DNA of 32,000 nt, from assembly GCA_963692915.1 (NCBI GenBank), contig OY843584.1, positions 631,186 to 663,185 of the forward strand. Direction: 5' to 3'. Source of the stretch: Cenarchaeum sp. (GTDB taxonomy: Archaea; Thermoproteota; Nitrososphaeria; Nitrososphaerales; Nitrosopumilaceae). Positions 6,950-30,171 of this stretch are shown here, in pieces. The notes below the pieces were generated by a model. That model had not been told where the DNA came from. It did not search any database and saw only the letters and a list, made by a program, of their open reading frames with translations. The translations under genes were made by a program, and so were the position numbers. Each line of letters starts with the position of its first letter. Position 1 is the first letter of the stretch.

Positions 6950-7033
6950 TGTCGGCCAAGAGCAATATTTCCACGTGGCACACGCTTGCTATCTAATCAG
7001 GGCAATCATGACGCACACGCGCATGCCGCGCAG

Positions 7034-10000
7034 CTATTCCGGGGGCGGCGCCGGATACATCTCCAGGAGCGCAAGCTCGGCGAGGTTTATCTCGTGGGCG
7101 ATCTTTGCGCGGAGGCGCTCGAGGTACTCCTTTTGGTCCTCGGGCTCCGGGGAGGCGACATAGGCCGGCTCGGCAGCCGGCGCGGCCGGCGCAACTCCCA
7201 TGGCGCGCAGGTGCTCCTCGGCGATCGCGCGCTCGGACGCGATGAGCTCCGCAAAGCTGTCGGTGCCGCGCGCCCAGCCGTGCTGCGTCGCGCGATCCTC
7301 CTCGTACATCGACTCGTCGATCTCGTGGTACAGCGAGGCGAGGTTGCGCAGCGGCTCGTACGTGCCGGCCGGGGTGATGCGGTAGACGCGGTACTCGTCG
7401 TCGAGCATGTACGTCACGTGGCGCGTGTCATAGTCGTACGTCCCGTCGCCGTCGGCGTCAACGTTGCTGGCGATGAGCGGGTAGAGCACTAGCGCCCCGC
7501 CGTTGACCTCGATGCCGTGGCTCGGGTTTAGCGACTCGCCGGTCACGTGGACGCCGTGGTTGAAAAAGTTCTGCCACGAGTTGCGCCTCTCGTCCCAGAC
7601 GACCGTCGAGACGACGTCAAAGTTGAGGGGCTCGCGGAACGTGTGGTGTATCGTGACTATGCGGCACTCGGCCTCCGAGCCTGGCATGCACGCGCCGATC
7701 TCCGAGCTCGCGCGCAGCGTCTCGGCGTCTATCGTGTCGACTGCGCCGCCGACTGAGGCCGTCGCGTTGCCGTTGCCGTACGGCAGGCTCACCCTTATCT
7801 CGGCGCCCGACTCGCCAAAGTGCTGCCCGCGCCCCAGGCCAAAGGCCAGGCCGACGTGCCTGACGTTGAGCGGGCCCGTGTCCTCAAAGACCTTTATGAT
7901 CGCGACGTTCTCCACTCCGGTCTCCACGGTTATGAGCGGCATGGGCGTGTAATAGTACTCGGCGTCCACGGCCTCTCCGTTGTACGAGAACCCCTGGCTC
8001 ACGCGCCTCGTCCCCGTGGAGTCGACTCCCAGCGTCGGCGGCGTGCAGTCATCGCAGCCGTCCCCGCCGCCGCCGCCGCCGGATCCGGCCTGCGTGGCGC
8101 CAAAGCGCGTAAAGTGGTTTGTCCATATCACGAGATCCCCGCCATCGCGCACGCGGCACTCCCTGAGCTCGATGGCGCCAGAGCCAATACCTCTCGGCAC
8201 CCCAGAGTCATCAAACGATTCGCACTCGGGTATGGAGTGAACGGTGAGGGCGTCTGCGCCGGACAGCCAGAACGCGTGAGCCGCAGCGCCGGCACCGAGC
8301 AGCCTTATCGCCACGGGCCTGTCAAATGTCATCGGAGTCGCATCACCGCTCTTGCCGAACTCGACAAGTATCGCCGGCGGCCTGGAGGACAGAACCCTGG
8401 TCACTGCCTCGTTGGCCGCAGTCTCCTCGTCTGTCCCCTCCGCCGCGACATACTCGGTGCCGCGCGCCGGGGGCGGGAGTCGCGCGACGGCGATGGACTC
8501 GTCAGTGTCAACATCCCCAAAGTCCTCGACCACCGTTGACTGGCGTAATGTGACAGTCGCCCCGTCCACGTTCACCGTTATCGTTCCGGCCAGCGTGTCA
8601 CTGGGCAGCGAACTCAGGATGATCCTCGTGCTCTCGCCCAGCTCGCCTCTCTCCTCCCCTACAGCCTCGATTGTGTACTCGCCTGTGGCAGGCACGGTGA
8701 GCTCGAGCGCGCTAAGAGTGCCGCCAGCCTCGACCAGGGGCGCCTGCATGGTCGGCACGGGAACAAGCGGGTTACCGGCCCTGTCAGTCAGGCCCGATAT
8801 GCTGATTGTGAAGGGGCCAAAGTTCACGCGCGAGTGCACTTGTCTGATCGTGTGCGTGGCAGCTTCGGGGGCTATGGTAAGCGTGAAGGTATGGACCTGG
8901 CCGATTGAGCCACTCGACACTATACTGGCTACGCCGTGCACAGGCTCGGTGTATATTGTCAGCTGATGCGTGTTTCCCGGTGGGCGAAACACTTGGAGGA
9001 ACTCTGGAGGCACGGTGTCTATGACGGCGTTGCCGCCGGACGTAATGTCCGACTGGGTCAGTTCCACGTCAGTCGCGGGGTTTGCCCCCGTTGCGCGTAT
9101 GGTAAACTCGAATGGGGCGTTGTCGTCGGCGGCGTCCACCACGAACGAGTGTGACCACGTCCTGTCGTCGGTGTCGCCGGCGTTGCCCATCGCCGTCGGC
9201 GCGCTTGTCCTGTGCGTGCCCGGCACCGTTATCGTCGGTGCCGGCGACGTCACGATGTCCTCGCTGAACGTGACGTCGAGTGTGATCCTGTCACCGGCGT
9301 TTGCGTACTGGGAGTTTGGCCCCGTCCTGTCCGTGAACGAGCCGCTAGCCTCGTCTGCGACGGTCAGCGTGAGCGGGTACGCCGAGAGCGGCGCGTCATC
9401 CGCAATGTCGTTCGTTGCCGTGTTGGCCGCCAGGCCATTGGCTGCCGCAGACGTGTCAAGTATGTCCGACATCATGGAGGCAGGGACGTCATAGCCCAGC
9501 GCGGGCGGCGTGACGGTCGTGTCGCCTGTGCCCCAGCCGCTTGCGATCACGGTCGACTCGGCCAGCGTGAGCGTGAGCGTGCGCCCGACAAGCTCCGCTG
9601 TTCCAAAGTCTGTGCCCTCCGTGACGGCCGAGGCGAGCTCTGTTGCCGTGGGCAGTGCGGGCGGGGTCGTCGCCGTCGCATAGTGGTACCAGCGCGAGGC
9701 GTCCGGCCCGCCGGCGGCGGCCGTGACGTCCTCGTCAAACGTGACCTCTATTGACCTGGGCGAGACCGTCTTGGCCGTAAAGAGCGGCGGCAGGCCGTCA
9801 ATTGCCGTCGTGCGCCCCGCGATGGGCGTGCCGTCAGAGGCCAAGAGCACCGGCATTGTCTGGCCCGAGGCCGGCCTGTACGCGATGTGGGGGGTGGCAT
9901 CAGAGGCCTGCGCGTCATACCCGATGTAGAACGTGAGCGGCTCGGTGTCGGTGCCGGAGCAGATGCTGGTAATGTCAAACGGCGTGGCTGACACCGCCGC

Positions 10001-13000
10001 CGGGGCGCCGCCGCTCGTGCACACAGCCGAGAACGCGGTGGCCTGCGTCCCGCCGGTTCCGTCACGCGCCGTGCCGACAAACCACTCGTCGAGGTGGATG
10101 TTGCCCGTGACCGTGCTGGTGAACACGATCCTGACATAGGTCGAGTCTGCCGCCCTGTGGGTCGTCGCCGTGTATGCGGCCGGCGGGATTATCTCCAAAT
10201 ACTCTTGCGTCACCTGCGTGCCGGCCGCAAGCGCATTGGGCGCCGTGGCCTTGTCCGTGACTTGGCCGAGGCGGATCATGTAGGTGGCTCCAAGTGTCGC
10301 ATCACTCCCGAGGTTCATGCGCACAAAGTTATCCGAGCCGGGCTGCGTGAGGCTGTCCACGCCAAGGTCAGGCCTGATGCTCCACCCTGCAGTCGTGGAT
10401 GGCAGCTCGACGCCTTCGGTGAACGTCACGTGCACGGTTCTGAGCGAGTGGAACGTGACAGAGACTATGGAGGGCACGAGCCTGTCCGGAACCATCACCG
10501 TTGAGCCGCTGGCCAGGGGGTTGCCGGCCCCGTCACTCAGTCCACTGCCCATATACGTCACAGTCGGCGCAAAGCTAGTGTCAACGTCCGCATCGGCGTA
10601 CGCTATGGTCACGAGGTCGCGTGCCGAGTTGAGGGTCGCGCTCGTGACTGTGACTGTGGTCGTGCCCTCGGCGACTCCCCAGTCTGCTGAACCCACCGTT
10701 GCGCTTCTGGGCAGGTTCTCGGACAGCTTTACAGTCAGCGACGTGGCTGACGTCGTCCTCGTGTCAGCGTCTGTGAGCATTGTGGGAGGCGTGCGGTCTA
10801 TGCTGACGCGGTATCCGGCACCTGCTATGGAGCTGCCGTCAGCATTAGTCGCGCGGGTCGTCAGGTCGGCGTGCGTGAATGTTGCCGCGCTTCCCTCAGC
10901 GTCCGTAACGGTGATGCTGAACGTGACGTCACCTTCTGGCGAGCTGCTCGTCACGCTGTGCGAATAGATGTACCGTAGGGGGTTGGCCTGATCTGGCCTG
11001 AACACGCTCGTGCTAGTCACCGGCGAGCCCGAGTCCGTAAAGAACATCGCGGTGCCAAGAGCCGCCGTGTTACTGACTGTGGCGCTCACGGGAATGAGCG
11101 TGCTGCCGACGTAGAGCGGCTCGGTGACTGTTATGACAACCCACACATTGTCATTCAGGCGAGCAGGATTCGCGAGGTAGGGACTGTTTGAGGGGGTAGA
11201 GGCCTGCTTTCTCATGTGCAGCGAGTCTCTGGCTGCCAGTGCGGGCGGCGCGCCGTCACCGGCCTCAGTCGAGTACGACAGCACGGCATTCACGCCATCC
11301 GTCAGGGTTCCGGCCACATACATGACAGACGGCGTGGCCGCCGTCGAGGAGAGCGGCCCGTGCGTGATGAGGAGCTCCGTGACGGCAGGGCTCGACGGTA
11401 TGGCCGGCGTGACTGCGTCACCTGCCCCTGCCGAGGTCTCCGGCGTTGCAGTCACCTTGCCGGAGGTCGCCACAGTCTCCACGCGCGATATGTCCAGCGC
11501 CACATTGCCTGCGTCACTGGCCGCGTCGTTCTCGGTGACCGTCCAGTTCATCGTGTCAAGCGTGCCCCCAAGGCTGCCATCAAACGTGACCCTTGTTGTG
11601 GTCAGCGTCTGTGTCTCGGCCGTAAACGAGTCCGCAGTCGTGATCATGGCCGACTCTTCTGCGCCCACCGCGTTGGCAGGCTCGGCCATGTCCGCTATAT
11701 CATAGTCTGGAATCACCGTGTACTCCCTGTCAGCCATGATCGCCGAGCCGAGGCTGAGTGTGTACGTGGACAGTGTTTCGCGCATGGCGGACAGCACTTG
11801 TATCCCCACGGGGGAGGTGGAGGGGGAGCCGTCGTCTTCTTGCACAACCCAATTGTTGTCCGTGCCTTCGGTGCCCGCGACGTACGGGTTGGACGTGCCC
11901 TCTATGTTCTCCACAAACGTGACGGGCTCGGTGAACGTGACGTGCAGCGAGGTCGGCGTGGTTATCACGGCTGCCCTTATCTCCGGGGGCGCCGTGTCAG
12001 CGGCGGTGGCCTGGCTTGTCGTCAACACTGTAACGCCATAGGTCAGGTCGCCATCAGTGGCCGTGTATGTCACCTTTGGCGTCGAGGCCGTCGAGGCCAG
12101 GCCGTCGTGCGTTAGGATGATCGAGCGGCGGAGCAGCTCGGCAGGGCCTTCGAGAGTCCCAGTCGCCGCCGAGACTGCCGTGACGCGCCTGTCCGTGCCG
12201 GCCTCGGTCACGGCCCAGTCGTCGGCATCCAGTGTGCCGCCCGGCTGGAGCGGGAACGTCACGGCGATTGTCCTCGAGTCTATCGTCCTGGCCGTAAAGG
12301 CCGCCGGCGGGGCGTCCCCAAATGCCGCTGACACCGAGCGCTCCGTGACTGCGTTGCCCTGCGCGTCGGCCAGTCCGGTCGACGGCAGGCTGACTGTGTG
12401 CTCGACGCCAGTCGTGGCCGCAGAGGCCAGCGTGATGGTGAGCGTGTTCGTGCCTGCGTTGTACGCCGGCGATCCCGCTGCCGGCGTCACGGTGTCCGGA
12501 TCGCTGCCGGCGTCGTCCCCGTCAGGCACGGTCACGGCGTACGTCAGGGTATCTATCGTCCCCGTGTTGGCCATCGCCTCGCCAAAGTTGACCGTGATCG
12601 TGTCAGCCGCGCCAAACGAGGCCACAGGCGTCGGAGGGGCGCCGTCTGCGGCCATCCTTGCCACCAGCGCGGAGAGCGCATTGCCCACAGTGTCCACGAT
12701 CCCCGGCGGGGCGTTCGAACCGGTCGGCACCGTGTAGGTGACCGGCGGCGTGGCCCCAGTCGACGCCGTGTCCGCATGATACAGCGTTAATGCGCCAGAG
12801 GGCTGGCTGCCGGCATGCGAGGCCTGATGCACTCCAACTTGCCATCCAGCGGCGCGCTCTCCGGCGACAGGAAGCACGACGGCCTCGCTGAACGTAATGT
12901 CCGTCCCGGTGCGGCTCACAGTCTTTGCCGTGTACGTCGGCGGCATGTTGTCAACTGCCTCGGCGTCGTGATACGGCACGGAGAGTCCCTGGATGGCCGA

Positions 13001-16000
13001 CGGGGTACCGCTCACCCCGGGGGGCAGGCCGATTTGGGGGATGAGGTTGTGCCTCACATTTGGCGTGGATCCCGTCGATGAGAGCGGCGCGTGCGTGATT
13101 GTCATCTCGGTCGCCGTGTTCGATGGAGACAGCTTAATTGTGGGAAGGAGTTGCGATTGAGCCACAAACACGGACGCGGTGCCCAGCATGAGTGAGGATA
13201 TCTGCCTCCTCTCGGACGTCTGCGGATCACCGTCATCATCATCAGTCACTATCCAATGGCCAAGGTTGAGAAAGCCGCTAGTCAGCGGCGGGCCAAAGAA
13301 CGACACAGTCGTGCTCGTCGGCGAGTTTGTCACTGCCGTGAATGGCGGCGCAGTCGCCATGACAGTCGTGGTCGTCAGGGCGTTGCCAGACGTGTCGGCC
13401 AGTCCCGTGGACGGCAGTGCCACCGCGTACACGTCGCGGTGTGTCGCCGTGCCGGCCAGCATCAGCTCCAGCGTGTGCGTGTGGGGATTGTACTCGTGTG
13501 GCCCGGACAGCGTCACTGCTGTCGAGTCCTCGGTCACCGTGTAGGTGAGGCCCGCTATCGTCTCCGGACTGGCAAGGGCCTCGCTAAAGGCCACATTGAT
13601 CACGCCGGGTGCCCCAAATGACGCGCTAGCCGTGGGCCCGATGCCGTCGGTGAGGGGCACAGACGATCCGGTGCGCAGGACGTTGCGCCCTGACGCGTCA
13701 ACGACCCTGTTGGAGGCCGTGTCGGATCCCGTGTACAGCAGTGCCGTGCCGGCGGCCAGGTCGGTAAAGTCCAGTGCCTGTGTGCGCGTGAGCGTGATCC
13801 TGTCGGCGGCGACATGGCCCGAGTCAAACGTTATGCCGCCGCCAATGGTCCACTCTGAGCCCGTGAGGACAATATTGGCGTCGACAGACTTTGAGAGCGT
13901 CGCGCTCACCTGCGTTGGCGAGTCGAGTGTCGCCGAGACCAGCGTCATCGGGGTGCCATCAACGACCGTTTTTGGCGGCGGTATCTCACGGGTGCGATCA
14001 ACCAACATCAGTTCATCCAGCGTGAACGGGTCGGTGTCCATCGGGTCGCCGCCAGAGTCGGCCAGGGCCGTCTGTCCTGCCAAAAGCGTCGCCGGCTTTG
14101 CGAACATGATGCCCGGCATTGATGTCAAATCCAAATTCGATATTGACTCGTGCCTTAGCGTAAACGCAGTCGCCGAGCTGAGCTCGACTGTCGGCGAGCG
14201 CAGCAGGTCGACTGTGCTGTGCTCGCCGGCCCTGACTGACTGGATCTCCACGGTGACCGGACCGTCAGACGTCATGCCCGCGAGGCTCCAGTCAGCGGCG
14301 CGCAGCGTCCCGCTCACGGCCTCGTCAAGCCTGACCACCGTCGTGCGGTCGCCCGTCAAGAGCGCCACGGAGATCTCGGGGGCAGGCGAGTTAACGACCG
14401 AGATCCCGGATTTCCCAGCGGACTGGTTTGGCGGCGTGGCCCTATCCGCAAAGTTCTGCGCATCGGGAATGTATTCGCCGCTCTTGAGGCGCTGTGGCAG
14501 TGTCCCAACCACCTCGTTGGGGTTGGTCGGCGAGACCATGAGATTGGAGCCCCCAACAGAGCCTGCAACAGGTCCTGTTGTGCCGGCCGCGGTGTGCACA
14601 TGTATAACGGACTCTGGAAGCACAGTGACAGGGCCACTGAATGTGACTCTCACGCTCGTGCCATCACTGCTAACAGATGGGGCAAAAGTGGTAATGCTCT
14701 CCTTGTCGACTGCGACGATATCCCACACCCCGGCGCCCAGGTCCGTGCCGCCAAACGCTAGACCCCCAGTGGCCGGTGAGGTGTACCTGATCGTCGGCGT
14801 CTCATCAGGACCCAAGGCGCCAGAAAAGGCAACGCGAATGTCAAAGTCTAGCCTGTTATCTATCGTGGACGTGACACCTCTACCAGCGGATGAAAAGGGA
14901 TGTCCAACTGCCGTAACGGGTATTTCCCTCGTAGAATCAGGGAGGTTGATGATGACGAACTCGGATGCGCGAATCGTGCTGCCGTCCGCCCTGGACTTGA
15001 GAACTGCAAAATAGCTGGTATCGCCGGTCTTGTCCACACGGAACGGCGGCGTGTGCGTCAGTGTGCACGTGGCAGCGCACGTTGCGGGGTCAAATGGGGT
15101 GCCAGCGCTGTTCTCGAATGTCGGCGCGATGGTGTACACGACGCCGGGGATCGCATTGGCGCCTAGCGTGGCCGTGACGATCATGGCGGTAGTACGCGCA
15201 ACACTCGACACGGTGATCACGTCTGGCAGGGTGTCTGCGTCATGGGGAGTTAACGTGTTGTCAGGCGCCGTGACCCCAAGGTTGGACGTGGTGGCGGTGG
15301 ACATGTCGATGGTGTCGTCAAACGTCATGCGAATCGTCTTTGAGCCCGTAAACTCTGCAGAGCTCAAAACCAGCGGCGGCGTGTGCGTCAGTTCGCACGT
15401 GGCGCCGCACGTTGCGGGGTCAAATGGGGTGCCGGGGCCGTTTGCGAATGTTGGCGCGATTGTGTACACGACGCCGGGGATCGCATCGGCGCTTAGCGTG
15501 GCCTCGACATTCCTGGCGGTAGAACGGGAAACACTCGACACGGTGATCACGTCTGGCATGGTGTCTGCGTCATGGGGAGTTAACGTGTTGTCAGGCGCAG
15601 TGACTGCCATGTTGGACGTAGTGGCGGTGTCAGTGGCGATAGTGTCCACGAACTTCATGAGAATCGTCCTTGGGCCCGTAAACTCTGCTGAGGACAGAAC
15701 ATTCGCGCGCACGAGCACGTTGGCAGTGCTGCCTGACGTGGTGTCTTGCCAATTTATCAAGTTGGCTCCCGATGTTGGGCTCACGTTTGGGGGAGTTGCC
15801 GTGTCCCTGGCCACGATGGTAAAGGTGAGTGTGAAACCACCGGTGTCAGCGGCATCTATAGTGAACGTGTGCCGCCAGCTCCGGTCATTGCTGTCGGCGG
15901 TGTTGACCATGTCCACGGCCGTCGGCGTCCTGTGCGCTCCAGGGACCACTATCGTCGGCGCCGGCGATGTCGCGACGTCCTCGTCAAACGTCACGTCTAT

Positions 16001-16207: not shown

Positions 16208-16231
16208 ACTGCCGCCCTTTCAACATACGAG

Positions 16232-16238
16232 TATATAA
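16232..16238 (-). promoter_or_regulatory. TATA box (TTATATA on minus strand) of giant gene 1
   Basis: Located 25-31 nt upstream of the ATG at 16207. An identical element sits at the same spacing upstream of giant gene 2. Confidence 0.55.
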
Positions 16239-16266
16239 CACAATTGGTGGGTTTGCGCCCAAAATG

Positions 16267-16285
16267 CCCCCCCCCCCCCCCCCCC
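16267..16285. repeat. Homopolymer C19 (G19 on the coding strand) upstream of the giant gene 1 promoter
   Basis: 19 consecutive C counted directly. The proximal end is 60 nt upstream of the ATG and 28 nt upstream of the TATA box. Confidence 0.95.
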
Positions 16286-16846
16286 ATTATACGGCATGCC
16301 CCGACCTAGCCGCAGAGCCTTTTGCGAACCTTGGCTTGCCAAGCAGTATCGTTCGGGTTTCAGCAATGCTCGGCGCATCAGACTCAGAGTCGCTACGCTC
16401 GTCGTTTTCCATGTGGCAGCATGACTTAATTTCAGTGTGAAGTGCTGGGCCGTGCCCTGCTTTGCCCACGAATAGACGCGGGCAGCAGCTCCTGGGAACG
16501 GCACGGCATGAAATTCCAGAGGCGGCCAACAGGCCCTGTCATGTCGCCGCGCCGGGATATCCCCGGTATACTGATGTGCGCCTTTGGCGCCCCTGCAAAA
16601 GGATCACATGCGGGATGAGCCGTGCCGGGCTTGCGCCCTCCGGGGCGCGCTCGCCGCCGCCGGAATCGCGCGTCCTGCCCGGGATGGGCTTGCGTCGGCA
16701 CGGTGTCCCGGATGCCGGGTTTGGCTGTGCCGCAGGGCCTGGCGCCAAACGGGCCTGGCGGTGCCGCCTGGGCAGAACCGCCAGTCCCGAGATCAGCAGG
16801 CTGCGATGCGCGATGGCGCGCCGTCGCACACGCGCATGCCGCGCAG

Positions 16847-19800
16847 CTATTCCGGGGGCGGCGCAGGGTACATCTCTAGGAGCGCAAGCTCGGCGAGGTT
16901 TATCTCGTGGGCGATCTTTGCGCGGAGGCGCTCGAGGTACTCCTTTTGGTCCTCGGGCTCCGGGGAGGCGACATAGGCCGGTTCGGCAGCCGGCGCGGCC
17001 GGCACAACGCCCATGGCGCGCAGGTGCTCCTCGGCGATCGCGCGCTCGGACGCGATGAGCTCAGCAAAGCTGTCGGTGCCGCGCGCCCAGCCGTGCTGCG
17101 TCGCGCGATCCTCCTCGTACATCGACTCGTCGATCTCGTGGTGCAGCGAGGCGAGGTTGCGCAGCGGCTCGTACGTGCCGGCCGGGGTGATGCGGTAGAC
17201 GCGGTACTCGCCGTCGAGCATGTACGTCACGTGGCGCGTGTCATAGTCGTACGTCCCGTCGCCGTCGGCATCGACGTTGCCGGCTATGAGCGGGTAGAGC
17301 ACGAGCGCCCCGCCGTTGACCTCGATGCCGTGGCTCGGGTTTAGCGACTCGCCGGTCACGTGGACGCCGTGGTTGAAAAAGTTCTGCCACGAGTTGCGCC
17401 TCTCGTCCCAGACGACCGTCGAGACGACGTCAAAGTTGAGGGGCTCGCGGAACGTGTGGTGTATCGTGACTATGCGGCACTCGGCCTCCGAGCCTGGCAT
17501 GCACGCGCCGATCTCCGAGCTCGCGCGCAGCGTCTCGGCGTCTATCGTGTCGACTGCGCCGCCTACCGAGGCCGTCGCGTTGCCGTTGCCGTACGGCAGG
17601 CTCACCCTTATCTCGGCGCCCGACTCGCCAAAGTGCTGCCCGCGCCCCAGGCCAAAGGCCAGGCCGACGTGCCTGACGTTGAGCGGGCCCGTGTCCTCAA
17701 AGACCTTTATGATCGCGACGTTCTCGACTCCTGTCTCCACGGTTATGAGCGGCATGGGCGTGTAATAGTACTCGGCATCCACGGCCTCTCCGTTGTACGA
17801 GAACCCCTGGCTCACGCGCCTGGTCCCCGTGGAGTCGACTCCCAGCGTCGGCGGCGTGCAGTCATCGCAGCCGTCCCCGCCGCCGCCGCTGACGCCTGGT
17901 GCAGTGGCGCCAAAGCGCGTAAAGTGGTTTGTCCATATCACGAGATCCCCGCCATCGCGCACGCGGCACTCATTGAGCTCGATGGCGCCAGAGCCAATAT
18001 CTCCGGGCACTTCAGAGGCGTCACGCGATTCACACTCGGGTATGGCGTTAACGGTTAAGCCATTTGGGCCGGACAGCCAGAACGCGTGAACCGCAGCGCC
18101 GGCACCGAGCAGCCTTATTGCCACAGGCCTGTCAAATGTCATCGGAGCCGCATCGCCGCTCTTGCCTAACTCGACTAGCGTCGCCGGCGGCCTGGAGGCC
18201 AGAACCCTGGTCACTGCCTCGTTGGCCGCAGTCTCCTCCTCGTCTGCTCCTATCGCTGCGACGTACTCGGTGTCGCGCGCCGGGGGAGGGAGTCGCACGA
18301 CCACTACGGACTCGTCAGTGTCAACATCTCCAAAGTCTTCGACCACCGTCGACTGGCGTAATGTGACAGTCACCCCGTCCACGTTCACCGTTATCGTTCC
18401 AGCTAGTGTGTCACTGCGTTGCTCAGTCAGGCGGATGATCGTGCTCTCGCCCAACCCGCCTCTCTCGCCCTCCGGCGCCTCGATTGTGTACGAGCCTGCA
18501 GGTGGCACGGAGAACTCGGGCACAGCAAGAGTGCTTCCAGAGCCGGCTCTGACCGGAGTCGTTTGCTCACGGTTCACCGTGTAAACAAGCGGATTGTCGG
18601 CCCTGTCAGTCAGGCCGGTTAAAGTGAGTGAGTATGTGCCAGTGCCAGCTATGACCGCCTGGAATTGCTTGATCGTGTCCGTGGGAGCGTCGGCAGGTAC
18701 GGTGAACATGTTGTTATGGACCGGGCCAAAGGTGTGCGCCGTGTCTGGGCCCTGTGACACTGCCATGGCTGTGCCGTGCACAGGCTCGGTGAATATCAAT
18801 CGCTGATCAGAATCATGATCATTCATGGGTGGGCGAACCACGTAGAGGAGCTCTGGAGGCACGGTGTCTATGACGGCGTTGCCGCCGGACGTAATGTGCG
18901 ATTGGGTCAGTTCCACGTCAGTCGCGGGGTTTGCCCCCGTTGCGCGTATGGCAAACTCTAATGGAGCATTGTCGTCGGCGGCGTCCACCACGAACGAGTG
19001 TGACCACGTCCTGTCGTCGGTGTCGCCGTCGTTGCCCATCGCCGTCGGCGCGCTTGTCCTGTGCGTGCCCGGCACCGTTATCGTCGGTGCCGGCGACGTC
19101 ACGATGTCCTCGCTGAACGTGACGTCGAGTGTGATCCTGTCACCGGCGTTGGCGTGCTGGGAGTTTGCCCCCGTCCTGTCCGTGAACGAGCCGCTAGCCT
19201 CGTCTGCGACGGTCAGCGTGAGCGGGTACGCCGAGAGCGGCGCGTCATCCGCAATGTTGTTCGTTGCCGTGTTGGCCGCCAGGCCATTGGCTGCCGCAGA
19301 CGCGTCAAGTATGTCCGACATCATGGAGGCAGGGACGTCATAGCCCAGCGCGGGCGGCGTGATGGTCGTGTCGCCTGTGCCCCAGCCGCTTGTGATCACG
19401 GTCGACTCGGCCAGCGTGAGCGTGAGCGTGCGCCCTTCAAGCGTCGCGGTTCCAAAGCTTGTGCCCGCCGTGACGGCCGCGGCGAGCTCTGTTGCCGTGG
19501 GCAGTGCCGGCGGGGTCGTCGCCGTCGCATAGTGGTACCAGCGCGAGGCGTCCGGCCCGCCTGCGGCGGCAGTGACGTCCTCGTCAAACGTGACCTCTAT
19601 TGACCGAGGCGAGACCGTCTTGGCCGTAAAGAGCGGCGGCAGGCCGTCGATTGCCGTCGTGCGCCCCGCGATGGGCGTGCCGTCAGAGGCCAAGAGCACC
19701 GGCATTGTCTGGCCCGAGGCCGGCCTGTACGCGATGTGGGGGGTGGCATCAGAGGCCTGCGCGTCATAGCCGATGTAGAACGTGAGCGGCTCGGTGTCGG

Positions 19801-22800
19801 TGCCTTGGCATATGCTGGTAATGTCAAACGGCGTGGCTGACACCGCCGTCGGGGCGCCGCCGCTCGTGCACACAGCCGAGAACGCGGTGGCCTGCGTCCC
19901 GCCGGTTCCGTCACGCGCCGTGCCGACAAACCACTCGTTGAGGTGGATGTTGCCCGTGACCGTGCTGGTGAACACGATCCTGACATAGGTCGAGTCCGCC
20001 ACCCTGTGGGTCGTCGCCGTGTATGCGGCCGGCGGGATTATCTCCAGATACTCTTGCGTCACCACCATGCCGGCCGCAAGCGAATTGGGCACCGTGGCCT
20101 TGTCCGTGACTTGGCCGACGCGGATCATATAGGTGTCCCCGATTGTCGCATCACTGCCGAGGTTCATGCGCACAAAGCGATCCGAGCCGGGCTGCGTGAG
20201 GCTGCTCACGCCAAGGTCAGGCGTGATGCTCCACCCTGCAGTCGTGGATGGCAGCTCGACGTCTTCGGTGAACGTCACGTGCACGGTTCTGTGCGAGGGG
20301 AACGTGACAGTGTCTATGGAGGGCACGAGCTTGTCCGAAACGATCACCTCTGAGCCGCTGGCCAGGGGGTGGCCGGCCCCGTCACTCAGGCCAGTGCCCA
20401 TATACGTCACAGTCGGCGCAAAGCTAGTGTCAACGTCCGCATCCTCGTACTCTATGTTCACTCGGTCGCGCGCCGCGTTGAGGGTCGCGCTCGTGACTGT
20501 GACTGTGGTCGTGCCCTCGGCGACTGCCCAGTCTGTTGTAAGCACCGTTGCGCTTCTGGGCAGGTTCTCGGACAGCTTTACAGTCAGCATCGTGACCGAC
20601 GTCGTCCTCGTGTCACCGTCTGTGACCATTGTGGGAGGCGTGCGGTCTATGCTGACGCGGTATCCGGCACCTGCTATGGAGCTGCCGTCAGCATTAGTCG
20701 CGCCGGTTGTCAGGTTATCATGCGTGTATGTCGCCATGTTCCCCTCAGCGTCAGTCACGGTGAGCGTGAACGTGACGTCAACCTCTGGCGAGGTGCCCGT
20801 CACGGTGTGTGAATAGTTGTACTGGTAACGGGTCGGATCAGAGGAGGCACTGCGCTTCAGACCGCCAGCTGCCGAGGCCGTCGTCGACGAGCTCTCTCCC
20901 GGAAAGAGCGTGATGGTGGCGCGGGCAGGATCATAGCTTGCAGAATCTGTCAGGATAGCCGTGCTGCCGACGTATAGCGGTTCAGTGAATATTCCTATAA
21001 CCCACACATTTTCAGCTAGGAGGGCAGGTTTCGCAAAGCCCGTCGTGTTGGGCGCATTCTCTTGCGCCCTCATGTACAGCGAGTCTCCGGCTGCCAGTTC
21101 GGGCGGCGCGCCGTCACTGGCTTCAGTCGAGTACGACAGCACGGCATTTCCGCCATCCGTCAGGGTTCCGGCCACATACGTGACAGACGGCGTGGCCGCC
21201 GTCGAGGAGAGCGGCCCGTGCGTGATGAGCAGCTCCGTGACGGCAGGACTCGACGGTATGGCAGGCGTGACTGCGTCACCGGCCCCCGTCGTGGTCTCGG
21301 GCGTTGCAGTCACCGAGCCGGAGGTCGCCACAGTCGCCACGCGCGATATGCCCAGCGCCGCGTCCGGCGAGCCGGCAATGTCGTTCTCGGTGACCGTCCA
21401 GTTCCTCGTGTCAAGCGTGCCTCCAAGGCTGCCATCAAACGTGACCTTTGTTGTGGTCAGCGTCTGCGTCTCGGCCGTAAACGAGTTCGCAGGCGTGATC
21501 ATGGCCGACTCTACTGCGCCCACCGCGTTGGCAGGCTCGGCCATGTCCGCTATATCATAGTCTGGAATCACCACGTACTCCGTGCCAGCCACGATCGGCG
21601 AGCCGAGGCTGAGTGTGTACGTTAACGGTGTTGGGCGCGTGGCGGACAGCACTTGTATCTCCACAGGGGTGACGGAGATGCTGCCTTCTTGTTCCACAAC
21701 CCAGTCGTTGTCCGTGCCTTCGATGGCCGCGACGTACGGGTTGGACGTGCCCTCCATGTTCTCCACAAACGTGACGGGCTCGGTGAACGTGACGTGCAGC
21801 GAGGTCGGCGTGGTTATCACGGCTGCCCTTATCTCCGGGGGCGCCGTGTCGGCGGCGACTGCCAGACCTGTTGGCACAGGCGTACTGCCGTAGTACAGGT
21901 CACCACTCGCCGAGCTGTATGTCACTTTTGGCGTCGAGGCCGTCGAGGCCAGGCCAACGTGAGTCAGGACGTACGAGCGGGCGAGCACTTCCATATCTTC
22001 AAAGATACCAATTGCCGACGTGACTGCCATGACCATCCTGTCCGTGCCGTCCTCGCTCACTTTCCAGTCGTTGACATCGAGTGTGCCGGTCGGGCGCGAC
22101 GGAAATGTCACGGCGATGTGATCTGAGTCTAGCGTCCTTGCAGTAAAGACTGCCGGCGGGGCGTCCCCGTTTGCAGCTGACACCGAGCGCTCCGTGACTG
22201 CGTTGCCCTGCGCGTCGGCCAGTCCGGTCGACGGCAGGCTGACCGTGTGCTCTATTCCATTAACGGCGTTGGAGGCCAGCGTGATGGTAAGCGTGTTTGC
22301 GCTTGCGTCATACGCCGGCGATCCCGTTGCCTGCGGTACGGTGTCCGGAGCGTCACCATCATCGCTTCCATCAGGCATTGTGACTGTGTACGCCAGGCCG
22401 GCTATTGTCCCCGCGTTGGCCATCGACTCGCCAAAGTTGACTGTGATCATGTTATCCGCGCTAAACGAGGCAACGGGTGCTGGCGGCGTGCCGTCTGTGG
22501 CCTGAGGGGCGGGCAGCGCATTAAGCGTTTTGTCCGCAAGATCCACGATCCCCGGCGGGGCACTATCGCCAGTCGGCACCGTATAGGCAACTACCGGCAT
22601 GGCAGCAGTTGAGCCCGTGTCCGGGTGTGTCAGTGTGAGTGCGCCGTTGAGCTGGCTGCCAGCAGCCGAGGCGCCAAACCCGCCAACAGTCCATCCGGCA
22701 GCGCGCGAGCCGACGGCGGGCAGGACGACGGCCTCGCTGAACGAGACGTCCGTCTCGGTTCGGCTCACAGTCTTTGCCGTGTACGTCGGCCGCACTGCGT

Positions 22801-25720
22801 CGACGGACTCGGCGGTGAAATGTGGCACGTTGAGCCCAAGTGGGTTAACCACAGAGCCAATGCTAATGTTGTGCCTGACAGCCGGTGTGGATCCCGTCGA
22901 AGAGAGCGGCGCGTGCGTGATCGTCATCTCTGTTGCCGTGTTCACAACTAGTGTAGCGATCAAAGCCTGCCCATGGAGTCGGCTCGCAGATTTGGTGCCT
23001 AGCACAATTGTCGTTACCTGTCTATCCTCGGATGTCATCGAATCACCGTCGTCGTCGTCAGTCACCACCCACTGTCCCACGTTGAGAATATTAGACGGTG
23101 CGCCAAAGAACGACACAGTCGTGCTCGTCGGCGAGTTCGTCACTGCCGTGAATGGCGGCGCACGAGTCACAACACTCGTGGCCGTCAGGGCGTTGCCGGA
23201 CGTGTCGGCCAGTCCGGAGGACGGCAGTGTCACCGTGTACTCATCGTAGCGTAACGCCGGGTCAGTCAACATGAGCTCCAGCGTGCGTGTCGCCGGATTG
23301 TACTCGTGCGATCCTGACAGCGTCACGGTTTCTGTAGGCCCAAGCACGCCAAAGTCGTTTGTCGAAGGCTTTTTGCTCGCCGTGTAGGTGAGGCCCGCTA
23401 TCGTCTCCGGACTGGCAAGCTCCTCGCTAAAGGTCACTTTGATCACGCTCGACGTCCCAAATGACGCGCTCGCCGTGGGCCCGATGCCGTCGGTGAGGGG
23501 CACAGACGATCCGGTGCGCAGGACGACGTGTCCCGACGCGTCAACGACCCTGTTGCTGGCCATATCGGATCCCGTGTACAGCAGTGCCGTGCCGGCGCCC
23601 AAGTGGGTAAAGTCCAGCGCCTGCGTGCGCGTGAGCGTGATCGTGTTGGTGATGACAACGCCCGAGTCAAACGTTATGCCGCCGCCAATGGTCCACTCTG
23701 AGCCCGTGAGGACAATATTGGTGTCGACAGACCTTGAGAGCGTCGCGCTCACCTGCGTTGGCGAGTCGAGTGTCGCCGAGACCAGCGTCATCGGGGTGCC
23801 GTCGACGACCGTTTTTGGCGGCGGTATCATGTCGATGCGATTAACCGGCATCAGTTCATCCAGCGTGAACGGGTCGCTGTCCATCGTGTCGCCGCCCGAG
23901 TCGGCCAGGGCCGTCTGTCCTGCCGGAAGCGTCGCGGGCTCCCTGAACAGGATGCCCGGCAGTGATGTCAACTTCGCGTCCAACATTGACATGTGCCTTA
24001 GCGTAAACGCAGTCGCCGAGTCGAGCTCGACTGTTGGCGAGCGCAGCAGGTCGACTGTGCTGTGCTCGCCGGCCCTGACTGACTGGATCTCCAGTGTAAC
24101 CGGACCGTCAGACGTCATGCCCGCGAGGCTCCAGTCAGCGGCGCGCAGCGTCCCGCTCACGGCCTCGTCAAGCCTGACTACTGTCGTGCGGTCGCCCGTC
24201 GAGAGCGCCACAGAGATCTCGGGGGCAGGCGAGTCAACGAGCGAGACCCCGCCACTCCCGCTGCTGCGGTTTGGCGGCGTGGCTCCATCCCCAAACTGAG
24301 TCGCCTCGGGATAGTATTCGGCGCTCTTGAGGCGCTGTGGCAGTGTCCCAACCACCTCGTTGGGGTTGGTCGGCGAGACCATGAGATTGGAGCCCCCAAC
24401 AGAGCCTGCAACAGATCCTAATGAGAGGCGTTCGGTGTACACTTTGATAACGGAATCTGGAAGTATAGTGACGGGGGCATTGAATCTGGCGCTCACGGTC
24501 GTGCCATCACGGCTAACAGATGCGCTAATAGTGCCAATGCCAACCTTGTCGAGTGCGACGATCTCCCACACCCCGGCGCCCAGGTCCGTGCCGCCAAACA
24601 CTAGACCCCCGGTGGCCGGTGAGGTGTACCTGATCGTCGGCGTCTCATCAGGACCCAAGACGTCACTAGAGGCAATTCTAAGGTCAAAGTCTAGCCTCCC
24701 AGTTAGCGTTTCCGTGGGGCCTCTAGGAGGTGTAAAGGGATTTCCAAGTTCCGTAACGGGTATCTCCCTTGTAGAATCAGGGAGGTTGATGATGGTGAAC
24801 TCGGATGCGCGAACCGTGCTGCCGGTTGCAGCGGACCTGAGAACTACTTTGTAGAAACCTTCGCCGGTCTTTTCCACACGGTCGAACGGCGGCGTGTGCG
24901 TCAGTGTGCACACGGCGCCGCACGGTGAGGGGCCAATTGGGAGATCGGCGTTGCCGGTGAATGTCTGCGCGATGGTGTACACGACACCGGGGATCGCATT
25001 GGCGCTTAGCGTGGCTATGACGGCCCTGGCGCCTTGACGCATAACACTCGACACCTCGATCACGTCGGGCATGGTGTCCGCGTCATGTGGGGTTACCGTG
25101 TCATCAGGCGCCGTGACCGCAAGGTTGGACGACACGACAGTATCACTGGCGACACTGCCTGAGAACCCCATGCGAATCGTCTTTGAGCCCGTAAACTCTG
25201 CAGAGGACAGATTAGGCGCGTTCAAGACCACATTGGCAGCGTTGCCAGACGAGAGGCCTTGCCATGTTATCGCCCCTGCCCCCGATGAGGGGTTTGTGTT
25301 TGGGGTAGTTGCCGTGTCCGTGGCCACGATGTTAAAGGTGAAGGTGAACGGACCGCTGTCATTGGCGGCTATGACGTGCGTGTGCGACCAGGACCGGTCA
25401 TTGCCGTCGGCGGTGTTGACCATGGCCACGCCCGACGGTGACCTCTGCGCGCCAGGGGCCGTTATCGTCGGCGCCGGCGATGTCACGACGTCCTCGTCAA
25501 ACGTCACGTCCACGGTAATCCTGTCACCGATGCTCGCCCAGAACGCACGACTTCCCGTGCGATCCACAAAGGTGCCTTCAACATTGTCGGCCACGGTGAC
25601 TGTGAGGACAGTGACCCCCGGAGGCGTCGTGTCTGCCGCCTGGGCCGACGCGCCGCTGACAGAGGCGGCAAGGAAGAGCGACATGATCGCAAACGCCAAT
25701 GTTGGCACTGCAGCCCGCAT
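16847..25720 (-). CDS. Giant secreted surface protein (2957 aa), paralog of 7034-16207
   Basis: Uninterrupted 8874-nt ORF. The first 24 aa (signal peptide) are identical to the paralog, and the last 342 aa differ at 4 positions by eye. It has the same Ig-like repeat architecture, TATA box and poly-G tract upstream. Confidence 0.85.
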   Translation of the reverse strand: MRAAVPTLAFAIMSLFLAASVSGASAQAADTTPPGVTVLTVTVADNVEGTFVDRTGSRAFWASIGDRITVDVTFDEDVVTSPAPTITAPGAQRSPSGVAMVNTADGNDRSWSHTHVIAANDSGPFTFTFNIVATDTATTPNTNPSSGAGAITWQGLSSGNAANVVLNAPNLSSAEFTGSKTIRMGFSGSVASDTVVSSNLAVTAPDDTVTPHDADTMPDVIEVSSVMRQGARAVIATLSANAIPGVVYTIAQTFTGNADLPIGPSPCGAVCTLTHTPPFDRVEKTGEGFYKVVLRSAATGSTVRASEFTIINLPDSTREIPVTELGNPFTPPRGPTETLTGRLDFDLRIASSDVLGPDETPTIRYTSPATGGLVFGGTDLGAGVWEIVALDKVGIGTISASVSRDGTTVSARFNAPVTILPDSVIKVYTERLSLGSVAGSVGGSNLMVSPTNPNEVVGTLPQRLKSAEYYPEATQFGDGATPPNRSSGSGGVSLVDSPAPEISVALSTGDRTTVVRLDEAVSGTLRAADWSLAGMTSDGPVTLEIQSVRAGEHSTVDLLRSPTVELDSATAFTLRHMSMLDAKLTSLPGILFREPATLPAGQTALADSGGDTMDSDPFTLDELMPVNRIDMIPPPKTVVDGTPMTLVSATLDSPTQVSATLSRSVDTNIVLTGSEWTIGGGITFDSGVVITNTITLTRTQALDFTHLGAGTALLYTGSDMASNRVVDASGHVVLRTGSSVPLTDGIGPTASASFGTSSVIKVTFSEELASPETIAGLTYTASKKPSTNDFGVLGPTETVTLSGSHEYNPATRTLELMLTDPALRYDEYTVTLPSSGLADTSGNALTATSVVTRAPPFTAVTNSPTSTTVSFFGAPSNILNVGQWVVTDDDDGDSMTSEDRQVTTIVLGTKSASRLHGQALIATLVVNTATEMTITHAPLSSTGSTPAVRHNISIGSVVNPLGLNVPHFTAESVDAVRPTYTAKTVSRTETDVSFSEAVVLPAVGSRAAGWTVGGFGASAAGSQLNGALTLTHPDTGSTAAMPVVAYTVPTGDSAPPGIVDLADKTLNALPAPQATDGTPPAPVASFSADNMITVNFGESMANAGTIAGLAYTVTMPDGSDDGDAPDTVPQATGSPAYDASANTLTITLASNAVNGIEHTVSLPSTGLADAQGNAVTERSVSAANGDAPPAVFTARTLDSDHIAVTFPSRPTGTLDVNDWKVSEDGTDRMVMAVTSAIGIFEDMEVLARSYVLTHVGLASTASTPKVTYSSASGDLYYGSTPVPTGLAVAADTAPPEIRAAVITTPTSLHVTFTEPVTFVENMEGTSNPYVAAIEGTDNDWVVEQEGSISVTPVEIQVLSATRPTPLTYTLSLGSPIVAGTEYVVIPDYDIADMAEPANAVGAVESAMITPANSFTAETQTLTTTKVTFDGSLGGTLDTRNWTVTENDIAGSPDAALGISRVATVATSGSVTATPETTTGAGDAVTPAIPSSPAVTELLITHGPLSSTAATPSVTYVAGTLTDGGNAVLSYSTEASDGAPPELAAGDSLYMRAQENAPNTTGFAKPALLAENVWVIGIFTEPLYVGSTAILTDSASYDPARATITLFPGESSSTTASAAGGLKRSASSDPTRYQYNYSHTVTGTSPEVDVTFTLTVTDAEGNMATYTHDNLTTGATNADGSSIAGAGYRVSIDRTPPTMVTDGDTRTTSVTMLTVKLSENLPRSATVLTTDWAVAEGTTTVTVTSATLNAARDRVNIEYEDADVDTSFAPTVTYMGTGLSDGAGHPLASGSEVIVSDKLVPSIDTVTFPSHRTVHVTFTEDVELPSTTAGWSITPDLGVSSLTQPGSDRFVRMNLGSDATIGDTYMIRVGQVTDKATVPNSLAAGMVVTQEYLEIIPPAAYTATTHRVADSTYVRIVFTSTVTGNIHLNEWFVGTARDGTGGTQATAFSAVCTSGGAPTAVSATPFDITSICQGTDTEPLTFYIGYDAQASDATPHIAYRPASGQTMPVLLASDGTPIAGRTTAIDGLPPLFTAKTVSPRSIEVTFDEDVTAAAGGPDASRWYHYATATTPPALPTATELAAAVTAGTSFGTATLEGRTLTLTLAESTVITSGWGTGDTTITPPALGYDVPASMMSDILDASAAANGLAANTATNNIADDAPLSAYPLTLTVADEASGSFTDRTGANSQHANAGDRITLDVTFSEDIVTSPAPTITVPGTHRTSAPTAMGNDGDTDDRTWSHSFVVDAADDNAPLEFAIRATGANPATDVELTQSHITSGGNAVIDTVPPELLYVVRPPMNDHDSDQRLIFTEPVHGTAMAVSQGPDTAHTFGPVHNNMFTVPADAPTDTIKQFQAVIAGTGTYSLTLTGLTDRADNPLVYTVNREQTTPVRAGSGSTLAVPEFSVPPAGSYTIEAPEGERGGLGESTIIRLTEQRSDTLAGTITVNVDGVTVTLRQSTVVEDFGDVDTDESVVVVRLPPPARDTEYVAAIGADEEETAANEAVTRVLASRPPATLVELGKSGDAAPMTFDRPVAIRLLGAGAAVHAFWLSGPNGLTVNAIPECESRDASEVPGDIGSGAIELNECRVRDGGDLVIWTNHFTRFGATAPGVSGGGGDGCDDCTPPTLGVDSTGTRRVSQGFSYNGEAVDAEYYYTPMPLITVETGVENVAIIKVFEDTGPLNVRHVGLAFGLGRGQHFGESGAEIRVSLPYGNGNATASVGGAVDTIDAETLRASSEIGACMPGSEAECRIVTIHHTFREPLNFDVVSTVVWDERRNSWQNFFNHGVHVTGESLNPSHGIEVNGGALVLYPLIAGNVDADGDGTYDYDTRHVTYMLDGEYRVYRITPAGTYEPLRNLASLHHEIDESMYEEDRATQHGWARGTDSFAELIASERAIAEEHLRAMGVVPAAPAAEPAYVASPEPEDQKEYLERLRAKIAHEINLAELALLEMYPAPPPE
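17877..17888. repeat. (CCG)4 trinucleotide repeat encoding the poly-Gly hinge of giant protein 2
   Basis: Four CCG units at the position homologous to the six-unit tract at 8064-8081. Confidence 0.8.
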
Positions 25721-25744
25721 ACTGCCGCCTTCTCAACACGCGGG

Positions 25745-25751
25745 TATATAA
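25745..25751 (-). promoter_or_regulatory. TATA box (TTATATA on minus strand) of giant gene 2
   Basis: Located 25-31 nt upstream of the ATG at 25720, the same spacing as copy 1. Confidence 0.55.
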
Positions 25752-25779
25752 CACCATTTGTCGGTTTGCGCCCAAAATG

Positions 25780-25796
25780 CCCCCCCCCCCCCCCCC
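25780..25796. repeat. Homopolymer C17 (G17 on the coding strand) upstream of the giant gene 2 promoter
   Basis: 17 consecutive C counted directly. The proximal end is again exactly 60 nt upstream of the ATG. Confidence 0.95.
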
Positions 25797-26128
25797 ATTA
25801 TACGGCATATCCCCGCCTAGCCGCGCAGCATTCTGCGATCAGCCGGACCTCGGAGATGTGGCAGACACGCACGTGGGCAGGGGCGCCACAAGGCCAGGCG
25901 GGAATCACCCATTCCAGCATAAACCCAGACTCCCACCGGCAGACAAAAGATCCCACGGGCCATAAACCCCCCTCCCATGCCATTGGGCCCATCATCCCCA
26001 CAGCCCCGACCCCACGCGTGGGGTGACTGCCATGAACGGCGAGCCGGCAGAACCCCCACAGGCACGCCAACGGGCCGCTGCCAGGGCGCCCCAACGGTTT
26101 TAACACCAAGGAGAGCGCGCGCGATCGC

Positions 26129-28789: not shown

Positions 28790-28909
28790 AGTCCTGCGCC
28801 ACCTGCGCGCAAATGTCGGGGAATTCCTGGACCAGTGTGCGCCATGGCGCCGCCAGAGAGCTTAATCGCGCAGGAGACCGCATCAGGCCAGAGTCCACGG
28901 CCCATGGCA

Positions 28910-28928
28910 GGCTATATCATATATAGCC
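28910..28928. promoter_or_regulatory. Palindromic TATA element GGCTATAT-CAT-ATATAGCC upstream of cassette gene A1
   Basis: Perfect 8-bp arms with a 3-nt spacer, ending 21 nt upstream of the ATG at 28949. An identical element with identical spacing sits upstream of A2 (31402-31420). Confidence 0.55.
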
Positions 28929-28948
28929 GCGCAGCGCAGAATTCGCGC

Positions 28949-29557
28949 ATGACGTCTGCCTATTGGAGAGCGCACGGGGACCCACCAATAGTCGTTGGGA
29001 CTGCGGCGACGACGATATACATGCTAGGCATCATACTGGTCATAGCAAGGGTCACCGGAATCGTCCACGACGTCGGATCGTTTGGCGCCGTCATTGGGAC
29101 CATGGCGTTGGGGTTTATGGTCTACATATTTGTAAAGACCACAACGCGCGACAGCAAGGCCGAGCGAGGCAGAGAGTATGAATTGAGGGAGGCTGACAGT
29201 GAAAATATCAGTCGATTGACACGCATAATCGAGCAGTGTGAGATATCGCTGCTAAAATTAGAGCAGCATAAAGAAACATCCAAGGAAAGATTAATCATGG
29301 AGTTACAATATGTGCGAGATCGGACAGACATTATTTTAACAAATTATGAGAAGTATTTGAGTCCAGAAGGCAGAAAACTAGTTGGAATCATTAAGGACAT
29401 AATCGACGAGATGAGGTTTAATGGCCATGCAGGAAATACACGCACGGATGACGCGATTAAAAACATAGTACAATTAAAACAACACGTAATGGATGTGGAT
29501 GATCAAGAGCTCAAAAGAAACAGAGAGTCGACCATGCATGGAACGCCAGATCAGTAG
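28949..29557 (+). CDS. Uncharacterised membrane protein 'A1': two N-terminal TM helices plus a charged coiled-coil-like tail (203 aa)
   Basis: Hydrophobic segments PPIVVGTAATTIYMLGIILVIARVTGIV and FGAVIGTMALGFMVYIFV are followed by a Glu/Lys/Arg-rich helical-looking region. The ORF track starts at 28835. However, a 1-nt indel between the two copies (gcaggagaccgc versus gcaaggaccgc) puts the upstream parts in different frames. ATG 28949/31441 is the only start codon shared by both copies, and it sits 21 nt after the conserved TATA palindrome. Confidence 0.65.
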   Translation: MTSAYWRAHGDPPIVVGTAATTIYMLGIILVIARVTGIVHDVGSFGAVIGTMALGFMVYIFVKTTTRDSKAERGREYELREADSENISRLTRIIEQCEISLLKLEQHKETSKERLIMELQYVRDRTDIILTNYEKYLSPEGRKLVGIIKDIIDEMRFNGHAGNTRTDDAIKNIVQLKQHVMDVDDQELKRNRESTMHGTPDQ

Positions 29558-29582
29558 AGGCAGATTTGTGCCCAACTGGACA

Positions 29583-30143: not shown

Positions 30144-30171
30144 AGACCCAGTCTGCTCCCCGCGTCACCAT

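Follow-up and report, generated by a model that had tools for sequence, protein, structure and literature searches.

Large Ig-domain (immunoglobulin-like) surface proteins that are diversified by recombination appear in the study by Makarova et al. 2021 (PMC8416519), which describes a recombination-driven hypervariable protein in Thermococcales, VARTIG, as well as mosaic loci for PKD-domain surface proteins in Methanosarcinales, where the C-terminal domain is conserved or homogenised. In N. maritimus, the surface-layer (S-layer) protein NmSLP (Nmar_1547) has a 91%-identical paralog, Nmar_1201 (PMC11153153). An expanded set of S-layer-like proteins was found by Moeller et al. 2019 in ammonia-oxidising archaea of sponges, including C. 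symbiosum, and roles in adhesion or recognition were proposed for them (PMC6790972). Here we describe a tandem pair of giant genes in a stretch of 32,000 nucleotides from Cenarchaeum sp. (contig OY843584.1, positions 631,186 to 663,185), which is called the window below and is numbered from its first letter. The downstream gene of the window is called wD and the upstream gene, which adjoins the PGK gene, wU; cU and cD are the upstream and downstream genes of a sister genome. With a probability of about 0.75 we consider the two genes to be old tandem duplicates that recombine with each other and encode giant secreted proteins of the cell envelope in a sponge-associated Cenarchaeum.

The two open reading frames (ORFs) follow each other on the same strand, as proposed in a sequence-only reading of the window that had also described conserved ends, a variable core and probable gene conversion between the copies (coordinates in Table 1). 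Sequence alignment showed that wD and wU share 79% of their amino acids and 85.6% of their nucleotides. Of 8778 aligned nucleotides 1262 differ (14.4%), and identity extends over at most 260 nt without interruption. The first 24 amino acids are identical, and the copies also have ca. 95-120 nt of sequence before each ATG and ca. 22 nt behind each stop codon in common. Only 4 residues differ over the last 342 amino acids (20 of 1026 nt between 7037-8062 and 16850-17875), and a block in the interior is nearly identical too (9000-10130 and 18849-19979, 37 differences over 1131 nt, 96.7% identity). Adjacent to this block the nucleotide identity drops to 65-78% with indels (ca. 8550-9055 against 18360-18900), and several N-proximal blocks are only 55-70% identical, again with indels. 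Except for the sequence behind the stop codons, these segments had been picked out by eye in the earlier reading, and the alignment reproduced them. The proposed reuse of an N-terminal module further down the same protein also held (amino acids 24-120 match 2264-2360 with 57% identity, E ~1e-32), but the two copies lie 2240 residues apart and not 2270. Sliding-window analysis gave between 0 and 65 differences per 150-nt window and a dispersion index of 12, far above the value of ca. 1 expected from a uniform process.

Along the pair, the number of synonymous substitutions per synonymous site (dS; Nei-Gojobori method, 60-codon windows) varies from 0 to about 1.2, a spread of more than 20-fold, which excludes divergence under uneven selection alone. 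In the C-terminal domain dS between wU and wD is 0.067 and the ratio of non-synonymous to synonymous substitution (dN/dS) is 0.08, and this domain is under strong purifying selection. In the middle block (columns 1801-2400 of the alignment) dS is similarly low (0.05-0.06) at a dN/dS of 0.6-1.4, and the similarity of the two copies in this block is therefore the result of recent homogenisation rather than constraint. The difference in length between the proteins, 100 amino acids, is mainly due to an internal tandem duplication of a module of ca. 110 amino acids in wD, the two copies of which are 78% identical (residues 170-279 and 280-389).

The best match in a scan of a genome collection was a chromosome-level metagenome-assembled genome (MAG) of 1.98 Mb from Cenarchaeum sp. 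(OY843768.1), where the matching locus, L001, holds the same tandem pair adjoining PGK, with polypeptides of 3058 (cU) and 3060 amino acids (cD). Weaker matches were found in other MAGs labelled Cenarchaeum, Thaumarchaeota or Nitrosarchaeum, and a metagenome scan gave no close relatives. The PGK genes of the window and L001 are 96.2% identical in nucleotides with a dS of 0.13, which indicates that the two genomes are close relatives and represent different strains. The earlier reading had made an adhesin role conditional on host association, and the nearest relatives indeed belong to a genus known from sponge symbionts (PMC7848895).

In a codon alignment of wU, wD, cU and cD each parsimony-informative site supports one of three possible groupings of the genes. 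The 709 informative sites form 72 runs, whereas 10,000 permutations gave 249 on average and never fewer than 223, and the longest concordant runs were significant for five of the six gene pairs in a Sawyer-type permutation test (P <= 5e-4). Together these permutation tests reject a uniform history of the genes at P <= 5e-4 and lend statistical support to the breakpoints. In columns 1-240 (38 sites) the genes are related by position, with wD and cD 93% identical and wU and cU each at ca. 80% to every other copy. In columns 379-1507 (about 490 sites) the positions are swapped: wU pairs with cD (97.2%) and wD with cU (95.6%), and the other pairs are at 81%. Columns 1530-1830 mostly show within-genome grouping; cU and cD are 97.3% identical, which points to conversion in the sister lineage, and wU carries a unique allele (80%). 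The swapped arrangement returns in columns 2400-2745, where wD and cU are 96.5% identical and wD and wU 80.7%. Finally, in columns 2789-3090 the grouping is within-genome only, with all 32 of 32 sites joining wU to wD and cU to cD. The C-terminal 1 kb is 98.1% and 97.2% identical within the genomes, whereas the identity between genomes is 94-95%, and this part of the genes thus shows concerted evolution within each genome.

For each variable segment there are two or three old forms of the allele (dS up to ~1); the four genes combine these differently, and the blocks that separate the segments are kept similar by conversion. One of the breakpoints is inside the internally duplicated module of wD and another at a 95-nt stretch which is identical in both copies and is a conserved module start. 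In wU, residues 1531-1790 (20351-21130) share only ca. 40% of their amino acids with the other three genes and have no relative at E <= 1e-5 in a collection of 5.8 billion proteins. Donors of the segments unique to wU were found neither in the other comparison loci nor in the protein database. At the 3' side of the pair, comparison of L001 20957-21134 with window 6880-7033 showed that the 3' flank of the sister's downstream gene matches the intergenic spacer over ca. 75 nt more than that of the window does, so the 3' boundary of duplication or conversion differs between the genomes.

The uneven dS, the permutation tests and the three incompatible histories relative to the sister pair strongly support gene conversion or recombination between the paralogs, as the earlier reading had suggested. 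The two direct repeats have undergone recurrent homologous exchange. Within each genome, conversion homogenises the promoter and signal peptide, the middle block of 1.7 kb and the last 1 kb at the C-terminus, and the variable cassettes (N-terminal modules, a 3.3-kb core and two further blocks) are differently combined or positioned in the two genomes. This involved non-reciprocal conversion after the split of the lineages and a different linkage of the cassettes in the two genomes. The swap of the cores could have occurred in one step by an intramolecular double crossover, in which a circle would be excised via one conserved block and re-integrated via another; such pop-out and re-integration would exchange exactly the interval between the crossovers. 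Alternatively, the cores may have been replaced in two steps by ectopic recombination with DNA from related strains. Unequal exchange between sister chromosomes alone yields arrays of three copies or one copy and no swap.

Of the two proposed routes, ectopic replacement is favoured by the low dS of the cores between genomes. In the swapped cores 77 of 1788 synonymous sites differ (4.3%), as compared to 38.5 of 314 in PGK (12.3%, P = 5e-7 against the cores) and 69 of 501 in the C-terminal domain (13.8%, P = 2.5e-12 against the cores), and the non-coding flanks of the two genomes differ by 7-10%. The core cassettes are thus about three times less diverged than PGK, which suggests that they moved between lineages after the split, in a recent exchange of cassettes.

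Both products are acidic proteins of ca. 310 kDa with an isoelectric point (pI) of 4.4, rich in Thr, Ala, Ser, Val and Gly and with 0.7-0.9% lysine. They have a typical signal peptide at the N-terminus as their sole hydrophobic segment, and analysis of composition and hydrophobicity revealed no C-terminal membrane anchor. A hidden Markov model iterated on the proteins themselves found about 15 confident copies per protein of a single module of ca. 90-110 amino acids with the consensus D..PP....A.....T..VTF.E...W.V. An AlphaFold model (AF2) built with 29 copies from the window is a beta-sandwich with a predicted local distance difference test score (pLDDT) of 79.6. Among PDB folds it is closest to the Ig-like domains of SbsC and SbsB, two bacterial S-layer proteins (4uic, 2ra1, 4aq1), at a template-modelling (TM) score of ~0.6 and a root-mean-square deviation of ~3 A over 97-99 columns, with weak Foldseek E-values (~7e-3); next come Sap and then CopC/PcoC. 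Sequence searches with the whole proteins gave no match in Pfam, NCBIfam or PDB. With pieces of 330 amino acids the only Pfam match was a marginal CopC-like PF04234 on the N-terminal module (24.0 bits, cutoff 23.3), and Big_5 (PF13205) gave no match even at E <= 10. A full HMMER search of 1.84 billion representative proteins with the first 1200 amino acids gave no more than 23 relatives, and the ten inspected are unnamed or annotated as hypothetical protein, most of them on short contigs. A word-index search with a repeat region of 470 amino acids gave one distant partial homolog, from a MAG labelled Deltaproteobacteria, and this protein carries both PF13205 and PF04234. The products are best explained as secreted arrays of diverged S-layer-type Ig-like modules, as predicted from modelling.

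The last ~340 amino acids are a domain of their own, which is strongly conserved and has four near-invariant cysteines, conserved cysteine pairs and the motifs CxxC-TPPTLGVD and, further on, WQNFFNHG. The AF2 model consists of a confident beta-sandwich core (pLDDT >90) followed by helices. A fold search in the PDB with this domain gave generic beta-sandwich matches only (TM score ~0.2), and its profile matched no usable family in Pfam, NCBIfam or the PDB sequences. In total 92 homologs of the domain were found, the named ones mostly from Nitrosopumilales; in free-living members it ends proteins of 500-650 amino acids with beta-propeller or Ig N-terminal parts. On the sister chromosome at least 8 genes carry the domain, five of which have open frames of more than 3400 amino acids. 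From its architecture and conservation, the domain would be a common module for attachment to, or display on, the cell envelope, where it would hold the protein. The result would be a constant anchor that displays combinatorial, shuffled Ig-like surfaces on the sponge symbiont, which may matter for host recognition, escape from phagocytosis or virus attachment. The domain, which is spread across the Nitrosopumilales and unannotated, may be a general anchor for surface display.

For selection for variability, which the sequence-only reading had proposed for exposed modules, the evidence is no more than suggestive. In columns 361-720 (360 codons) the dN/dS between wU and wD is 1.6-1.8 (bootstrap interval 1.15-3.0; Fisher P 0.016-0.002, depending on the transition weighting), but this excess fails correction for 12 regions. 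A value of ~4 was obtained for a short block (columns 1441-1530), dN/dS is ~1 in the N-terminal modules and it is 0.5-0.9 elsewhere in the repeats. Positive selection on the variable modules is therefore suggestive only. The old alleles kept beside homogenised blocks argue that diversity is being maintained.

Several points weigh against our interpretation of the locus. The linkage of the cassettes is taken in both genomes from the assemblies alone, the low dS of the cores between genomes is judged against PGK as a single housekeeping gene, and with one close comparator genome the events are neither dated nor polarised. The role as a surface protein or adhesin is predicted from sequence and structural models. 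For the putative anchor role of the C-terminal domain the basis is architecture and conservation only; the domain contains no transmembrane segment and has no structural match of known function. Additionally, the dN/dS above 1 is nominally significant only, being lost after the 12-region correction in a conservative model.

The same recombination could serve a different biology, with the products being S-layer subunits or accessory proteins whose variation is driven mainly by their use as virus receptors and not by adhesion to the sponge. This is a possible but doubtful explanation. It agrees with the structural match of the Ig-like arrays to S-layer proteins, with the pI of 4.4, which lies within the range of 3.4-4.9 reported for S-layer proteins of ammonia-oxidising archaea (PMC6790972), with the lack of a membrane anchor, as in NmSLP, and with the two S-layer paralogs that N. 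maritimus likewise has (91% identical, PMC11153153). However, the proteins show no sequence similarity to any PDB chain (phmmer with the whole protein, no match at E <= 1, assuming that NmSLP entries are included), and NmSLP is not one of the 50 best fold matches. A lattice needs fewer genes than the 8 or more giant ones that carry the C-terminal domain in one genome, and the occurrence of this domain on beta-propeller proteins of 500-650 amino acids in free-living relatives fits a general display anchor better.

It is likewise conceivable, though in our judgement unlikely, that the variable blocks reflect relaxed constraint, that is near-neutral drift of spacer-like modules with occasional recombination and no selection for diversity. 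Most variable blocks have a dN/dS of 0.5-1.0, as expected from this explanation, and the single block at 1.6-1.8 is only nominally significant. On the other hand, the ORFs are intact over ca. 9 kb each in both genomes, and the retention of distinct old alleles (dS up to ~1) beside homogenised neighbours suggests that diversity is kept.

An assembly artefact, in which the duplication or the linkage of the cassettes, especially of the swapped core, stems from mis-joins or merged strains, is highly improbable. Symbiont genomes are often population composites, and one boundary of the swapped core coincides with the 95-nt stretch identical in both copies and the other with the internal tandem repeat. 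Yet the number of differences between the copies, and the shortness of their longest identity, exclude collapse or false duplication, and the independent MAG has the same tandem arrangement with two full-length ORFs. The within-genome sites of the C-terminus and the converted block of the sister genome cannot come from mis-joins, and several independent mis-joins would be required; a mis-join that produced the swap is unlikely. Plain divergence after duplication without recombination, the ends being conserved by the purifying selection that the C-terminal domain does show (dN/dS 0.08), is already refuted by the dS, which itself varies >20-fold with blocks of dN/dS 0.6-1.4 still at a dS of 0.05, and by four-gene site patterns that are incompatible between segments (permutation P <= 5e-4).

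The promoters of the recombining pair share further elements. In the common upstream block the sequence TTATATA is centred 28 nt before each ATG, which would fit an archaeal TATA box and a leaderless transcript. A homopolymer G tract is located 60-78 nt upstream of the ATG, with 19 residues in wD (G19) and 17 in wU (G17); the corresponding tracts of the sister genome have 18 and 16 (L001 1884-1901 and 11696-11711). The tracts at giant-gene promoters are the only G or C runs of >=10 in the window and 26 comparison loci, and a 17-nt motif that occurs only at giant-gene promoters adjoins the tract on the side of TTATATA. The different lengths in the four gene copies (19, 17, 18 and 16) may represent real slippage or sequencing error, to which homopolymer lengths are prone. 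A role of the G16-G19 tract as a functional element of an archaeal variation system, either as a slippage-prone switch or tuner of expression or as a G-quadruplex that initiates recombination between the copies like that of pilE in Neisseria, is a speculative proposal which we rate as quite improbable. If true, it would, with the exchange of cassettes between strains, make the locus the first antigenic-variation-like system known from archaea that live as symbionts of animals. The locus would be a contingency locus if the tract acts as a slippage-prone spacer, and a long promoter homopolymer as in such loci is present with G19 and G17. The poly-G element can be tested directly with existing metagenome reads from sponges.

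Table 1. Position in the window of the two giant genes, their conserved and variable parts and their promoter blocks (aa, amino acids; nt, nucleotides)
Feature	Position	Strand	Remarks
wD	7034..16207	-	3057 aa, ~316 kDa, pI 4.4; secreted giant protein; ORF and translation
wU	16847..25720	-	2957 aa; paralog of wD
wD C-terminal conserved domain	7037..8074	-	98% nt identity to wU copy; dN/dS 0.08
wU C-terminal conserved domain	16850..17887	-	homogenised with wD copy
wD variable block 3, aa 2382-2711	8075..9064	-	cU-like; strongly diverged from wU, with indels
wU variable block 3	17888..18913	-	unique allele, 81-83% identical to the other three genes
wD conserved middle block, aa 1812-2381	9065..10774	-	95% identical to wU 18914-20623
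wU conserved middle block	18914..20623	-	counterpart of wD 9065-10774
wD variable block 2, aa 1495-1811	10775..11725	-	counterpart of wU 20624-21580
wU variable block 2	20624..21580	-	unique allele; most divergent part of the pair, 40% aa identity, dS ~1
wD core cassette, aa 378-1494	11726..15076	-	matches sister upstream gene cU; position swapped
wU core cassette, aa 268-1380	21581..24919	-	matches sister downstream gene cD; dS 0.04
wD tandem-duplicated ~110-aa Cys-containing module, aa 170-279 and 280-389	15041..15700	-	single copy in wU; recombination breakpoint here
wD N-terminal module, aa 24-120	15848..16138	-	reused at aa 2264-2360 (nt 9128-9418)
wD promoter block	16208..16300	-	TTATATA 16232-16238; G19 16267-16285
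wU promoter block	25721..25813	-	TTATATA 25745-25751; G17 25780-25796

The genes flanking the pair in the window encode aEF-2, an XPD-like helicase, a HerA/TrwB-like ATPase, PGK and a CofH/MqnC radical-SAM enzyme. The ATPase gene (4001-6949, plus strand) is convergent with wD and encodes a HerA/TrwB/VirD4-like protein of 982 amino acids which matches DUF87, TrwB_AAD_bind, TraG-D_C and two PHROG families of unknown function; its first ~340 amino acids are without a match. At the other end of the window (29000-32000) the G+C content falls from ~0.62 to 0.44-0.55, and the ORFs 28835-29557, 29583-30143 and 30609-31193 have no Pfam or PHROG match; this region may be a foreign or fast-evolving island. 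Scans of the window for tRNA and Rfam families gave no matches. Long plus-strand ORFs overlapping the giant genes were rejected as artefacts of high G+C content, and ORF 25798-26463 was rejected as it overlaps the start of PGK and has no family.

How archaeal symbionts present themselves to animal hosts and escape from phagocytosis or viruses is a subject on which almost nothing is known, and the locus provides a concrete, sequence-defined candidate: its Ig-like cassettes are interchangeable and have demonstrably been exchanged between the gene copies, and apparently from lineage to lineage as well. The Thaumarchaeota are not genetically tractable, and the locus is also a natural system in which to study their homologous recombination and gene conversion. 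In the literature surveyed, which did not cover the original C. symbiosum genome paper, no publication was found that reports recombination at this locus or describes the C-terminal domain or the poly-G promoters, nor anything relevant on gene conversion in Cenarchaeum.

Surface proteins that vary by gene conversion or mosaic formation are well known from bacterial pathogens, for example pilE/pilS and opa of Neisseria, vlsE of Borrelia, msp2 of Anaplasma and vsp/vlp of Mycoplasma. Neisseria pilE needs an upstream G-rich element that forms a G-quadruplex, and poly-G or poly-C tracts are present in many genes of this kind. Similar to these systems, the Cenarchaeum pair shows segmental transfer between paralogs, constant ends around variable cassettes and association with a host. 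The pathogen systems differ in having an expression site with silent cassettes and genes of 0.5-1.5 kb, whereas both copies described here are full-length, 9 kb in size and equipped with promoters. Partial or promoterless donor cassettes were found neither in the window nor in the comparison loci, and without silent donor copies the locus lacks the defining property of cassette-type antigenic variation.

Among S-layer proteins, NmSLP resembles the products of the pair in being thaumarchaeal, secreted and acidic, in its Ig-like arrays, in the lack of a membrane anchor and in the presence of two paralogs. It is, however, a protein of 1734 amino acids with dispersed paralogs, unlike the tandem genes described here, which encode proteins of ~3000 amino acids with a distinct C-terminal domain. 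The Big_5/SbsA-type domains of SbsC, SbsB and Sap have the same Ig-like beta-sandwich fold, whereas the window proteins stay below the Pfam threshold for Big_5.

VARTIG is likewise a large archaeal Ig-domain protein diversified by recombination. VARTIG has a hypervariable C-terminal Ig domain and variable downstream genes; here, in contrast, the C-terminus is the most conserved part and, in place of a downstream module, a convergent gene for the HerA/TrwB-like ATPase follows. No homology to arCOG07710 was seen in the window proteins. The closest described pattern is that of the Methanosarcinales PKD/Ig loci: there, too, neighbouring archaeal genes encode large surface proteins of Ig fold and form mosaics by recombination. 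They contain PKD domains, whereas the window proteins match neither PKD nor another Pfam family and end in a C-terminal domain specific to Nitrosopumilales. Compared with the Methanosarcinales loci, the present one belongs to a thaumarchaeal symbiont of an animal and consists of just two 9-kb genes, with a swap of position relative to the sister genome and one poly-G tract per promoter.

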